A stretch of DNA of 64,000 bases from a virus. Below, piece after piece: positions 13,097-51,879 of the stretch. The position numbers and the translations under genes are program-made. How positions within the stretch are numbered: the first letter of the stretch is position 1; each line of letters starts with the position of its first letter. The stretch covers positions 32,001 to 96,000 of IMG/VR virus record IMGVR_UViG_3300021168_000016, one strand, 5' to 3'. The notes below the pieces were generated by a model. The model was not told where the DNA came from and made no database searches. It worked only from the letters and a program-made list of their open reading frames with translations.

Positions 13097-13335
13097 AGAA
13101 GGCCCAATTCCTTTGCTCTTAAGTACATCAACCTGACTTGCGGACAGAATTCATCTTCGTAGATCTCATACACCATATATATATGGAGGAAATGATTCCG
13201 TAATGTACTTATCTTACACTTGAAATGATCTGCTATCTGATGTCTAATTGGCTTAGCTAAAGTTGTCTTCGGATTAATCATGTAATCGATAATGGCTTTC
13301 TGCTTCTCTGTACACCTGTCGTAGCTCATGATCAA
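13093..13335 (-). CDS. small LuxR-like HTH protein
   Basis: TEKQKAII...QIADHFKCKISTLRNH; resembles 24813-25196. Confidence 0.45.
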   Translation of the reverse strand: MIMSYDRCTEKQKAIIDYMINPKTTLAKPIRHQIADHFKCKISTLRNHFLHIYMVYEIYEDEFCPQVRLMYLRAKELGLL

Positions 13336-15086
13336 TCCATGAATCCAACTTTACGATCCATCTTTTGCAGTACATCAGTACGTGATTGCGTCCTCAAGCC
13401 GATAGGTTGTACTTCTCTTTCTGCTCGAAATTGTAGTCCGCACTGGCCGCAGCGCCATTGTCCCTGAGCACGGCTAATACACGTTGCTTGACATTCGGGA
13501 CAGTTAAGAGGCTTATCAACCTGCATTGGCTTCAGTAAACTCTTCGCTTCCTCTATTTTTCGCATATCCTTAAAGAAGTCCAATGCGCCGTAGACTAAAG
13601 TACGTTCAGCGAATGCGAGCATAATAGATTCTGCTCGATCAGGACTTCTCATTCCCCTTTTGGCTGCATCTTCTTTTGATTCAATCTGAATCTGCCCTTT
13701 TGAAGTAGGCTTATAACGTATACCGGCTAACTGTCCAACTGTCTTCTCATCTGAAAGTCCAGAAATCTCACCGGCCTGGAATCTAAGGCGGAGTCCCCAA
13801 TAGAACTCTGCTTTAAGATTGAAGTACTTATCACCATCGTTACTTATCTCACAGACATTGATAGGAGTAACTGGAAAGCCCATATCTTTAAGATGCTGGC
13901 AAATACCCCAGCCAATACCAATTGAATCAATATTGATATTCTCAATGTTCTCTTTTAGTCTCTCTTGAAGATTTCTTAGGCAGATTACAATATCACCACG
14001 TGGATCTGAATAGTTCCATTGCTTGTGAAGTATGATCTCTCCGCCACGCCTAACTGTAAGAGATGACTCATCTTCCCCAGGACCAGCAACATCTAACCCA
14101 GCCTTAATCTTTCCTACACCGATACCTTGGCTAGCCCCTGCTTCCTCAAGCCAAGTAAGACTCATGAGAGCATCAGGACTCTGTTTCGGGAAGTTTCCTA
14201 GTACACGAGATTCCCAGAGAGGATGTCCTGGACCCCATTCAAAATACTTTTCCTGTACCCATCTTCGAGTTGTTAGATAAGGAAGAGCATTAGTATCAAG
14301 TTCCTCATCTGTAGCATCTAACAGGTCTCCCGGTACTTTCTTTCCTAACCTTTTAGATTCTCCTAGTTGATCTAGGAAGTAGGTTCCTTTCAGGTTAGGC
14401 GTATCAAAGGCAGAGATTGTATACGTCTTCCAACCTGAACGATTATCTGTAAATGCATCATGGAAGGGACCGGATGAGATGGTTGGGTTGCCGATAGCAA
14501 GAATACGTACATTACCACCAGCTCTAGCACCTTCAATGGCTTCCCAGATCTTTGCTTCTACACCGGGTGCTTCATCTAGGATGATTAGTACATGCTCTGC
14601 GTGGATACCTTGAAACTTAACACCTTCATCAGACTTCGTGACTGATGTAGCTAATCCATAAGCGAGGCGCTTAGCTCCACCAGGAAACTGTATCTTGGTT
14701 AAGTTAGCAATGGGAAAAGGATATGTACTCTTAGCTAGGAAGCTGTGAACCTCTCCCCAGAGTAGACGTTCTACCTGTCCCCATGTCGGCGCGGTCGTTA
14801 CCACTACTACTTCCTGATACTTCGCTAGGAACCATAATACTGCTAAAGCTGCGGTAAAGGTCTTTGAAGAAGCATGGCAAGCCTTTACAGCTACACGAGC
14901 TTGAGGTACTGTCAGAGAGTTTAGAATCTCCTTCTGCATGTACCAAAGATTAGTCTGTAGATAAGTCTTTGCGAATAGGTCAGGAAGTTCAAACGATAAC
15001 TTGATACGTTGTGCTGGTGTTAAGGTTGATAGATTTAATCCTTGAGCAACAACATCAGCAACCGGTAATACTGCTTGAGTAGCCAT
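13332..15086 (-). CDS. terL: terminase large subunit
   Basis: VKACHASSKT Walker A variant, IILDEAPG Walker B, IGNPT, GLDVAG RNase H fold, SPDRAES; C-terminal Zn ribbon. Confidence 0.92.
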   Translation of the reverse strand: MATQAVLPVADVVAQGLNLSTLTPAQRIKLSFELPDLFAKTYLQTNLWYMQKEILNSLTVPQARVAVKACHASSKTFTAALAVLWFLAKYQEVVVVTTAPTWGQVERLLWGEVHSFLAKSTYPFPIANLTKIQFPGGAKRLAYGLATSVTKSDEGVKFQGIHAEHVLIILDEAPGVEAKIWEAIEGARAGGNVRILAIGNPTISSGPFHDAFTDNRSGWKTYTISAFDTPNLKGTYFLDQLGESKRLGKKVPGDLLDATDEELDTNALPYLTTRRWVQEKYFEWGPGHPLWESRVLGNFPKQSPDALMSLTWLEEAGASQGIGVGKIKAGLDVAGPGEDESSLTVRRGGEIILHKQWNYSDPRGDIVICLRNLQERLKENIENINIDSIGIGWGICQHLKDMGFPVTPINVCEISNDGDKYFNLKAEFYWGLRLRFQAGEISGLSDEKTVGQLAGIRYKPTSKGQIQIESKEDAAKRGMRSPDRAESIMLAFAERTLVYGALDFFKDMRKIEEAKSLLKPMQVDKPLNCPECQATCISRAQGQWRCGQCGLQFRAEREVQPIGLRTQSRTDVLQKMDRKVGFMD

Positions 15087-16620: not shown

Positions 16621-17376
16621 TCAAGAACCCTTTTGGGATTGTGTATCATCTACTAAGATCTTACCTTCAAGGACAGGATGCTTATCTTCGAGCTTCTCTC
16701 TATCCGGACTTACTACTCGAACATTTTGGACATTGATAGTAGTGTTCATGATAATCTGATCAAATGCTTGAATAGTTGATGGTGATCCATCTTTTCCATC
16801 TGATTCAAATCTGTTATCTGAAAGCATACCCTTTAGACGTGTTTCTAATGCGACGTATGCTGCTTTAGGTACAAACGTAATTCGAGGACGACCTGCTGCA
16901 TCATAGTAGAGTTCTTGAATAGCTTCAGCTGCTTCTCTTGACGGCATATTATTAAGGTTAAGCTGGAAGTTGCCATCAGGAAGAATATCGTAGTAATCAA
17001 GTGGATTTGAATGGGCGCAAGCAGAAACTCGATTTAATACATCTTCTGTAGTTAGCTGCATCTTCTCGAAATGAACTCTTGCTCGCTTCTGAATTTCTTG
17101 GAATATCCGCGGTCTGCGGTAAACATCGGTACCGGTAACACTTTCCTTAAACCCAGCTAAAGTTTTTGCTTCCTTTAGACTCTTACCCTGCAGAAAGAAT
17201 TCAATGAAGGTCATTTCCTTAGTAGTAAGACCTCTATTTGTGGGAAGCGGTGTATTACTAATCTTTTCTACTTGCTCAATAGAGAGACTACTGTTAGGTC
17301 TAAGAGGTAATACTGGAGTCTTTCTAATTGGTAGGAGGTCAACGTCTTTCTTTTCAATTGGAGGAGACGTGGACAT
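16621..17376 (-). CDS. terS: terminase small subunit
   Basis: LTTKEMTFIEFFL...AKTLAGF...LTTEDVLNR pattern; upstream of TerL. Confidence 0.75.
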   Translation of the reverse strand: MSTSPPIEKKDVDLLPIRKTPVLPLRPNSSLSIEQVEKISNTPLPTNRGLTTKEMTFIEFFLQGKSLKEAKTLAGFKESVTGTDVYRRPRIFQEIQKRARVHFEKMQLTTEDVLNRVSACAHSNPLDYYDILPDGNFQLNLNNMPSREAAEAIQELYYDAAGRPRITFVPKAAYVALETRLKGMLSDNRFESDGKDGSPSTIQAFDQIIMNTTINVQNVRVVSPDREKLEDKHPVLEGKILVDDTQSQKGS

Positions 17377-17565
17377 GTACCTTAAGTTGTATTGGATTCT
17401 CTACAGTATGTCAAGACAAACCTTTAACAGACGATTAATAAGGCAGATTACCAATAATATCTACTTGACTTCTTTCGAACGTTAATATACATTAGTAATG
17501 TCTTCGGACTCCCCGCCCAGAGGAAATGTATCTGGGCATCGCTTTATACAATTAATTCATAAAAA

Positions 17566-17600
17566 TCTCCCCCACCAACTAAAAGTGGGGGAGAACTTTT
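17566..17600 (-). terminator. intrinsic terminator-like hairpin
   Basis: TCTCCCCCAC/GTGGGGGAGA stem followed by T-run on minus strand. Confidence 0.55.
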
Positions 17601-17879: not shown

Positions 17880-17893
17880 TACACCTCCTTAGA

Positions 17894-17925
17894 AACATCC
17901 CCACCCCCGAAAGAGTGGGGATATT
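17894..17925 (-). terminator. hairpin 3' of the GGY-NN unit (terminator or processing handle)
   Basis: ATCCCCAC/GTGGGGAT stem with TTCG-containing loop on minus strand. Confidence 0.6.
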
Positions 17926-17926
17926 T

Positions 17927-18006
17927 TTGCTTTACCTTACCCCACCGGACCTCACCACAACGTACCTAACCCCGCCAGACCTCACCAGACCAGACCCTGC
18001 CGTGTC
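17927..18006 (-). ncRNA. orphan (GGY-NN)x16 pentamer guide-like RNA (VIPR-type)
   Basis: minus strand GACAC GGCAG GGTCT GGTCT GGTGA GGTCT GGCGG GGTTA GGTAC GTTGT GGTGA GGTCC GGTGG GGTAA GGTAA AGCAA. Confidence 0.8.
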
Positions 18007-18015
18007 ATTTCAAAA

Positions 18016-18282
18016 TCATGCGGCCTGTTTAGCCTTGACTACAGCACGCTTCCCAGTAAAATCACCGTTTGCTTCAGATTGGAAAGTGTACATGCCATCA
18101 ATTCCAGTTTGGACTGTTCCATCAAGAGTATGGTAAGCTTTTAGCCGACCTCGCTTCGTCTTCTTGACGAAAATTGGTCGGTAGACAACAGCGATGACCT
18201 CTAGACCGTTAGCATCCTTTTCTCCATGACCTGGCTCGATAGTAAAACCTAATCCGAGCAGGCTATTTGATTTCTCTGCCAT
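18016..18282 (-). CDS. hypothetical protein; its 5' codons resemble the decoded downstream guide
   Basis: AAGGAG RBS and TAGCGGTATA promoter-like motif upstream. Confidence 0.7.
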   Translation of the reverse strand: MAEKSNSLLGLGFTIEPGHGEKDANGLEVIAVVYRPIFVKKTKRGRLKAYHTLDGTVQTGIDGMYTFQSEANGDFTGKRAVVKAKQAA

Positions 18283-50901: not shown

Positions 50902-51555
50902 ATGAGTACAGCAGAAGTAATTCAGTTTGAGGAATCTGAATCTCAAGAGATTTCTCTTACAAAGATGTATGAAATCGCAGTAGAATCACTAAGTCCCGTC
51001 GGATTCGGACGATACTATGAACGAGAATATCCGGCAACACCTGTGGAACAAAACAATAAAGAGACGTATGAAGAACGGACTTGGATGAAACGCCTCTGGA
51101 TAAACGAAGACGGTAAAGTCTTCATTCCTGGAGTATCATTCAAAGGGGCGTATGTAAACGCTGCGGGACAGAATATGCTCCCTGATAGAGTTCCAAATAC
51201 TGGGAATAAAGGGACTTACACGAAACACTTCGCTGCTGGTTTCCATGTTATCAACAATGTTGTTACTGAATATACTGAAGCAGATGTTGTCAGGAATAAA
51301 TGGGGAAAGTGGTTACATGTTCCCGCAAATGCACAACGAGGAGGGAAGACAAGGGTTATGCGCTGCTTCCCAACAATCCCAAAGTGGGCCGGCAAACTAC
51401 AGGTAATCACCCATGATCCTTGTTTGACTAAAGATATCCTAAAGCGTTTCGGAGATGCAGCAGGGTTAGTAATTGGCGTCGGTTCTCTTCGTGTCCAAAA
51501 CAACGGAATGTGGGGGCAATTCCGAGTAGTTTCTGTAGAAGAAAAAGCTTTTTAA
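50902..51555 (+). CDS. stand-alone Cas7/Csm3-like RAMP protein (Vipr-like effector)
   Basis: N-terminal beta strand then ESLSP; FIPGVSFKGA resembles the RAMP IPGSSLKG motif; C-terminal Gly-rich loop GVGSLRVQNNGMWGQFRV; immediately followed by the pentamer array. Confidence 0.8.
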   Translation: MSTAEVIQFEESESQEISLTKMYEIAVESLSPVGFGRYYEREYPATPVEQNNKETYEERTWMKRLWINEDGKVFIPGVSFKGAYVNAAGQNMLPDRVPNTGNKGTYTKHFAAGFHVINNVVTEYTEADVVRNKWGKWLHVPANAQRGGKTRVMRCFPTIPKWAGKLQVITHDPCLTKDILKRFGDAAGLVIGVGSLRVQNNGMWGQFRVVSVEEKAF

Positions 51556-51879
51556 GATTCGATGCGATGCAATACGCTGAAATATGATAGGATTTGATGG
51601 AATATAATCTAATCGGATTAGATTTGATAAGATACGAAGTATTTTTATACTGGAATTATGATAGGATCAGATCAAATCTGATGGAATCAAATCGGATAAA
51701 ATAAGATCGAATGTGATCTGAGAGAATGAGATTTAATTTGATAAGATATGAAGTATTTTTATACTGGAATTATCATGCGATGAGATAAGATGTAATATAA
51801 TCTGATACCATCAGCCAAGATCTGTTTTGATGGGACCGGATGCGATATGATACGAGATTTTTCACTTTCGGAGAATCTC
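51556..51879 (+). ncRNA. array of three (RAT-NN)n guide-like RNAs (16, 18, 16 pentamers) with identical 24-nt linkers and terminal hairpin
   Basis: units 51556-51635, 51660-51749, 51774-51853; linker GAAGTATTTTTATACTGGAATTAT at 51636 and 51750; final GAGATT...AATCTC hairpin. Confidence 0.85.

Follow-up and report, generated by a model that had tools for sequence, protein, structure and literature searches.

The closest described systems to the locus analysed here are the VIPR systems, whose guides, in the accessible parts of the published accounts, are vrRNAs of 9–16 YNNGG repeats with a structured 3′ tail (bioRxiv 10.64898/2026.04.26.720920). Vipr protomers polymerise along the vrRNA, one per repeat, so that each GGY is hidden (10.64898/2026.04.26.720920; 10.64898/2026.04.26.720927). 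The NN pairs stay exposed and bind double-stranded DNA with every third base skipped, usually the codon wobble base, and the bound complex blocks transcription; targets may lie on either strand, no PAM is needed, and the natural targets are competing phages and satellites (10.64898/2026.04.26.720920). A target was called in that study at an NN match of at least 80%, and no self match that high is reported in its accessible text (10.64898/2026.04.26.720920). For the SUSP1 system, constructs with an altered GGY, GGY>GAY among them, are described there as having lost silencing (10.64898/2026.04.26.720920).

Phages and satellites also carry solo vrRNAs, which match their own genome less well than the genome of a rival (10.64898/2026.10.15.759431). 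The accessible part of that survey presents solo vrRNAs as widespread, with at least some of them functional, and describes solo vrRNAs of satellites that redirect the Vipr of the helper phage to decoy sites, namely multi-copy host repeats (10.64898/2026.10.15.759431).

The array studied here, array A, lies in a 64-kb window (the whole stretch of DNA that was analysed) of an uncultivated virus record that is unrelated to SUSP1. The genome record of this phage (G000) comprises 125,421 b and is 87% complete. Read on the minus strand, window positions 18006–17932, array A is GACAC GGCAG GGTCT GGTCT GGTGA GGTCT GGCGG GGTTA GGTAC GTTGT GGTGA GGTCC GGTGG GGTAA GGTAA, that is, 14 units, 13 of them with an exact GGY and one with GTT, and a degenerate 15th. 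It is the sole GGY-NN array within the window and the longest uninterrupted one (14 units) of the 125-kb genome. A five-unit GGY-NN pattern with at most two mismatches gave 12 overlapping matches in the window, all of them in array A, against 0.65 expected from shuffles; a four-unit pattern gave one extra, weak match outside the array.

As in VIPR, for which the SUSP1 system serves as the type II reference, the GGY-NN tract has a repeat count inside the published range, and a hairpin predicted behind it is a candidate for the structured 3′ tail. This hairpin begins 5 nt beyond the degenerate 15th unit (Table 1), and the plus strand of the same stretch likewise scores terminator-like; by analogy with the published vrRNA layout, the hairpin probably represents the vrRNA tail. 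It is a simple hairpin, whereas the SUSP1 tail is a pseudoknot, and a comparison of tails showed that it is absent from the genome's remaining GGY-NN arrays. At array A, no Rfam family reached the gathering score, and no tRNA genes were found.

Outside the window, the genome holds two more GGY-NN loci (Table 1). Compared by eye, array A and the outside arrays have the leader GA(A/T)(A/T)TGAC(A/G)(C/T) in common, the sequences ahead of the genome's other GGY-NN arrays being GAAATGACGC and GATTTGACA(C/T). In sense orientation, the outside arrays closely precede replication-region ORFs.

Table 1. Positions of array A, its neighbours and the Vipr-related features; window coordinates unless a record or locus is named
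Feature	Position	Strand	Remarks
Large terminase ORF	13332-15086		Beyond terS; named by eye from the ORF list
Small terminase gene (terS)	16621-17376		After the terminator-like hairpin; Pfam Terminase_2
Conserved element upstream of terS	~17480-17545; L143 ~505-560; L144 ~720-775	- (window)	
Intrinsic-terminator-like hairpin at cassette end	17566..17594	-	Terminator-type score
ORF86, Cys-rich, 86 codons	17619..17879	-	Strong ribosome-binding site; shares the cassette with array A
Array A 3′ tail hairpin, 15 pairs, strong	17893..17926	-	RNA fold prediction
Array A repeat tract (putative solo vrRNA)	17932..18006	-	14 YNNGG/GGY-NN units and a degenerate 15th
Array A 5′ leader motif GAAATGACAC	18002..18012	-	Compared by eye
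ORF88, small all-beta protein (predicted), 88 aa	18016..18282	-	Flanked by a methyltransferase-like gene and terS
Near-cognate site, ORF88 codons 6-19 (NSLLGLGFTIEPGH)	18226..18267	-	22/28 guide bases; skipped base is the wobble position
Vipr (Cas7-like RAMP) homolog, 217 aa	50902..51555	+	Only one in the genome
Three head-to-tail GAT/AAT-NN pentamer arrays	51556..51858	+	Immediately 3′ of the vipr homolog
GGY-NN locus outside the window, several arrays head to tail	G000:C1:104791-105075		
GGY-NN locus outside the window	G000:C1:110088-110167		
Vipr homologs of G001	C1:89739-90302; C1:96831-97397	-; +	

The NN pairs of array A, hereafter guide A, are AC AG CT CT GA CT GG TA AC GT GA CC GG AA. 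The preliminary description, made from the letters of the window, had aligned this string with codon positions 1 and 2 of residues 6–19 of ORF88, the gene just upstream, and had scored the match at 22/28; both strings and the score were reproduced. The mismatches are spread over six of the 14 dinucleotides, and the NN of the 15th unit (AA) is mismatched with the following ORF88 codon. With two bases read and one skipped, the ORF88 site has the top score on both strands of the window (runner-up 19, then 17) and of the entire 125,421-b genome, and it falls in the nearest gene, on the same strand and in the codon frame. Skips of 0, 2 or 4 gave at most 18–19, and a skip of 3 recovered array A alone. 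In the shuffle test that the preliminary description had called for, a score of 22 was reached genome-wide by none of 1000 dinucleotide-permuted and none of 1000 base-shuffled guides, the best shuffled score being 21 (in 7/1000 and 12/1000 guides, respectively). Among 1.35 million positions in unrelated viral loci, guide A itself scored no higher than 19. For the six further GGY-NN tracts that the genome carries, all outside the window, no site in the genome scored above their own shuffles, so the in-genome echo is special to guide A. With its top gapped match in ORF88, beyond what shuffles attain, array A has the properties of a guide under an NN-skip-NN code aligned to the wobble position, as had been claimed. 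That code is already published for VIPR and is thus not new here.

TRAP sites, bound by a ring protein that the genome or its host encodes, consist of triplet repeats with 2–3-nt spacers, among them period-5 repeats with 2-nt spacers. A different identity for array A, as another kind of G-rich leader element such as the binding site of a TRAP-like ring protein, with a gapped match that is coincidental, is extremely improbable. The period-5 layout is all that the array shares with TRAP sites, and the lack of in-genome matches for the six other arrays would also suit a coincidence. On the other side stand the 0/2000 shuffles at 22, the decoy maximum of 19, the agreement of the decoded peptide with the ORF88 family consensus at 12/14 residues, and the co-occurrence of such arrays with Vipr homologs across IMG/VR. 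A TRAP-like site, a G-quadruplex and a Shine-Dalgarno-like run in the 5′ leader were all considered for array A and dropped, since the VIPR papers and the Vipr family that recurs beside such arrays explain the array, and guide A is assigned to the VIPR vrRNAs.

The gene that guide A echoes belongs to a family of 67 clusters on large phage contigs. A first protein search yielded four homologs and a profile search 66 non-self clusters, while no relatives of ORF88 were found in viral_contigs and no close relatives of the array A region in the phage collection. The predicted fold is all-beta (pLDDT 76) and had no PDB match at E <= 0.001; the sequence belongs to no family in Pfam or PHROG.

Two non-self ORF88 alleles, both from metagenome loci, were read as DNA. 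The allele of L143 (NSLLDLGYVIEPGK) matches guide A in frame at 24/28 (85.7%), above the 80% from which the VIPR papers accept a wobble-aligned target, and that of L144 (NSLLENGYTIDYQN) at 20/28, below the self match of 22/28. Both are at the ceiling that their protein sequences permit, and the resident protein would permit 23. Among the 66 non-self family proteins, three (P0004, P0011 and P0014; footprint NSLLELGYTIEPG[KN]) allow 21–26/28, judged from the protein only, and four further ones allow at most 24/28. Homologs with a closer fit to the guide than that of the resident allele had been predicted, and L143 together with these three protein-only alleles (at most 26/28) answers that prediction. 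The perfect gapped nucleotide match that had been proposed as a check was not found in any homolog, the best being 24 as DNA and 26 as allowed by protein: none of the 66 non-self proteins offers an allele of 27–28/28, and the exact guide pattern, relaxed to 20 fixed bases, had 0 matches in viral_contigs and 0 in genome_contigs. Guide A decodes as T-S-L-L-[DE]-L-G-Y-T-V-[DE]-P-G-[KN], and each of these residues is present in some natural allele, as each dinucleotide of the guide is in at least one. Two outcomes that the preliminary description had named as counting against its proposal did not occur: shuffled guides fell short of 22, and homologous alleles surpass the resident one. Its wording that the guide was copied from a related phage is better replaced by saying that the guide is aimed at relatives.

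A role in self-regulation, in which guide A would bind the start of its own ORF88 weakly and thereby time or damp the expression of ORF88 and the downstream terminase, is quite improbable. The genome's top site lies in the neighbouring gene, in its reading frame and on the array's own strand, and the self identity of 78.6% over 14 units (22/28), or 80.8% without the first, non-GGY unit (21/26), is near the published target cut; given this borderline value, some self-binding to the resident ORF88 is possible. Against such a role, mismatches affect 6/14 dinucleotides and non-self alleles fit better, with 24 verified and up to 26 allowed. In their accessible parts, the surveys likewise report no self matches at or above 80% (10.64898/2026.04.26.720920) and lower scores of solo guides on self (10.64898/2026.10.15.759431). 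Selected escape substitutions in the resident footprint were also considered. The residues G10 and H19 are found only in the resident ORF88 and lie inside the footprint, but resident-only residues are not significantly enriched there (2/14 inside vs 5/74 outside, p = 0.31), and the idea was set aside as unsupported.

We consider it probable that array A is a solo VIPR vrRNA directed at the ORF88 of relatives. No vipr gene lies within 33 kb, and the self score of 22 is below the non-self scores of 24 (from DNA) and up to 26 (from protein). Array A is like VIPR in its 1-nt skip, in the wobble alignment of the skipped base, in having a gene of competing phages as the putative target, and in the presence of a Vipr homolog in the genome. 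It differs from the SUSP1 system in lying 33 kb from that homolog, which is of a divergent clade and is flanked by GAT/AAT-NN instead of GGY-NN arrays. The solo vrRNAs described for VIPR-null SUSP1-family phages and F5 satellites are also similar: they too have no adjacent vipr-vap, are wobble-aligned and score lower on self than on relatives, and, like them, array A would need a Vipr in trans (10.64898/2026.10.15.759431). However, the targets of solo vrRNAs in the accessible account are vipr genes, other vrRNAs, satellites and host repeats, whereas array A points to a small packaging-head gene (10.64898/2026.10.15.759431). A further difference is that the phage's own, mismatched version of the target ends only 10 nt ahead of array A, and, unlike the Vipr-null phages with solo vrRNAs, this phage keeps a Vipr homolog with a different adjacent repeat code.

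The proposed mode of action would be as follows. Guide A appears to spell codons 6–19 of the ORF88 family, skipping each wobble base, and its candidate non-self sites are alleles of the L143 type and of the NSLLELGYTIEPGK type. By analogy with the published systems, Vipr protomers would polymerise on guide A and hide each GGY, leaving the NN pairs to bind target DNA. During co-infection, or against a relative that is resident as a prophage, guide A may bring the Vipr filament onto the ORF88 of the rival. The bound filament would silence the packaging genes ORF88-terS-terL of the rival, which ORF88 heads, and the phage's own ORF88 would escape through its six mismatches (22/28, just under the 80% cut). 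A canonical GGY-reading Vipr may be provided by the rival, in line with the "guns for hire" model of the literature.

Virus-borne mini-CRISPR arrays serve in virus–virus conflicts and use contiguous spacers and Cas effectors. Array A is comparable to them as a guide that is probably directed at close relatives and carried by a virus that seems to have no effector of its own for it, and differs in its gapped code and in the Vipr filament, where the mini-CRISPR arrays have contiguous spacers and Cas effectors. An action on the rival's protein instead of its genes, with array A mainly soaking up or misdirecting a foreign Vipr and the ORF88 match being incidental or a parking site, has little probability. 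The redirection of helper Vipr by satellite solo vrRNAs is a precedent for it, but the decoys published in the accessible account are multi-copy host repeats (10.64898/2026.10.15.759431), and the best matches of guide A are single-copy phage genes of relatives, aligned to the wobble position.

Array A, its hairpin tail and the Cys-rich ORF86 make up a cassette of ~400 nt between ORF88 and the small terminase gene, array A starting 10 nt past the ORF88 stop codon. Array A is assigned to this cassette because both relatives read as DNA, L143 and L144, are without the array, the hairpin and ORF86 at the same junction. Both keep the order of ORF88 homolog and terS, and L143 also has a methyltransferase-like gene upstream. 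In the two relatives, a hairpin and a conserved element come straight after the ORF88 stop codon, and the window has this element too, upstream of terS. This element reads roughly GATACATT.CCTC.GG..GGGGTCC.TAAGACA in all three phages and may represent either a packaging signal or a structured RNA. ORF86 has many CxxC motifs in its N-terminus and a Pro/Tyr-rich middle, and it had no match in Pfam or PHROG.

The unit had been described as an orphan. This holds in that no vipr gene is adjacent to it, but a Vipr homolog does lie inside the window, 33 kb from array A, with none closer (Table 1); a six-frame scan of the 125-kb record (87% complete) found no second one. A set of 134 IMG/VR loci with GGY-NN arrays was fetched, and their ORFs were compared with all ORFs of the genome. 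The window ORF had blastp matches to ORFs of 190–260 aa beside GGY-NN arrays in many other IMG/VR loci, and an iterated profile of this array-adjacent family, comprising 72 ORFs, matched it at E = 2.5e-42. A 195-aa CDS of SUSP1, flanked on both sides by intergenic regions that bear arrays, also matches this profile (2.6e-52) and has H17, R138, D177, W178 and R179, as named in the structure paper (bioRxiv 10.64898/2026.04.26.720927). The array-adjacent family is therefore identified as Vipr.

At the positions that contact G1, G2 and Y3 in SUSP1 (H17, R138, D177, W178 and R179), the resident Vipr has G, F, S, L and R, and judged by its sequence it is a member of a divergent clade. In the arrays immediately 3′ of it, 15/17, 17/19 and 11 units are RAT and in phase, where shuffles reach 6–7 at most, and two of the three arrays end in the tail GAAGTATTTTTATACTGGAATTAT. 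Homolog and arrays together (50902–51858) resemble a VIPR locus whose repeat code is not GGY. In VIPR systems an accessory vap gene adjoins vipr; the neighbours of the vipr homolog here, ORF156 and ORF234, have no PHROG matches other than to endonuclease-like families and families with no assigned function.

Loss of H17 and R138 was considered as a marker of the GAT code and rejected. The closest relatives of the resident Vipr, from L027 (39% identity) and L016 (34%), lack both residues (S17, F138) and sit beside GGC-NN arrays, so the loss is a feature of the clade and not of the code. In the F138 clade, only position 177 (SUSP1 numbering) differs by code: two proteins that adjoin GGC-NN arrays have R there, and three that adjoin GAT-NN arrays have S, M or T, numbers too small for a statement on covariation.

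Two further Viprs adjoining GAT-NN arrays were found among 120 IMG/VR loci fetched with a GAT/RAT pattern. One of them is in G001 (the record of L154), a phage record of 115 kb, complete and not related to the present one, with two Vipr homologs (Table 1), a divergent one (G17, F138, M177) beside GAT-NN arrays and a canonical one (H17, R138, E177) beside GGY-NN arrays. Since G001 has one Vipr per code, the resident Vipr has altered contact residues and SUSP1 loses silencing when GGY is altered, it is suggested that the GGY-NN and GAT/AAT-NN codes have separate readers. If so, the 87% of the genome that is available would contain no reader for array A, which would then be a solo vrRNA needing a Vipr in trans. 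The resident Vipr might nevertheless load guide A, given its kinship to the GGC-associated proteins of L027 and L016.

The same arrangement could be read as that of a relic. Array A would then be left over from a lost VIPR locus of the GGY type, or have been brought in with the cassette by recombination, and would have neither a working partner nor a present function. We regard this as rather unlikely. It would agree with the absence of a canonical Vipr from the record (87% complete) and with the distance of array A from the sole vipr homolog, whose adjacent arrays use GAT/AAT-NN. A relic is harder to reconcile with 13/14 units that are intact GGY, with the strong tail hairpin and with the persistence in the genome of three separate GGY-NN loci that share a leader motif; published solo vrRNAs, moreover, are described in the accessible account as widespread and at least some as functional (10.64898/2026.10.15.759431).

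A more far-reaching version of the solo-vrRNA reading, which is speculative and rather unlikely, would give the two codes of this phage opposite purposes. Its own Vipr would work on a private GAT/AAT-NN code that the solo GGY guides of rivals could not hijack. The three solo GGY-NN loci would be weapons that load the canonical Vipr of a co-infecting relative against the genes of that relative. Guide A, 10 nt from the resistant ORF88, would be inseparable from it by recombination, and the two would act together as a killer-and-antidote haplotype, in the manner of a gene drive among related phages.

The VIPR system, its code and the solo-guide strategy were already published in 2026, and array A leaves the known mechanism unchanged. 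What it adds is an independent natural case of the gapped code, unrelated to the published systems of E. coli and Pseudomonas. The putative target also differs, being a conserved small packaging-head gene of close relatives, where the targets in the accessible published accounts are satellites, lysis–lysogeny regulators and vipr itself. As a guide beside the phage's own mismatched copy of the target, array A offers a concrete case for the avoidance of self-targeting and for the number of mismatches that suffices. Two repeat codes in a genome with one Vipr homolog, and one Vipr per code in G001, suggest orthogonal codes, which would be useful for multiplexed engineering if confirmed.

GGY-NN arrays are numerous beyond this genome, with ~4000 IMG/VR stretches carrying the exact eight-unit pattern, as extrapolated from 2/64 parts of the collection. 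A survey for near-cognates covered 195 arrays from 61 other IMG/VR loci, with flanks of 1.5 kb each. At an identity of at least 0.75, a match in the own locus was found for 10/195 arrays against 35/1950 decoys (p = 0.006); at 0.70 or above there was no excess over decoys (p = 0.19), and none of the three near-cognate matches inspected lies in an open frame. The survey is taken to lend no support to near-cognates beside guides as a general pattern. A guide adjoining its near-cognate is not a common feature of the 61 surveyed loci, none of which has a convincing case within 1.5 kb. In the genome of this phage, the part that spans the outside GGY-NN loci (L145 3535-6786 and 13826-17059; G000:C1 ~101.5-115 kb) also contains ORFs that by eye resemble genes of 7-deazaguanine (queuosine-type) synthesis, two of them broken by intein-like inserts.
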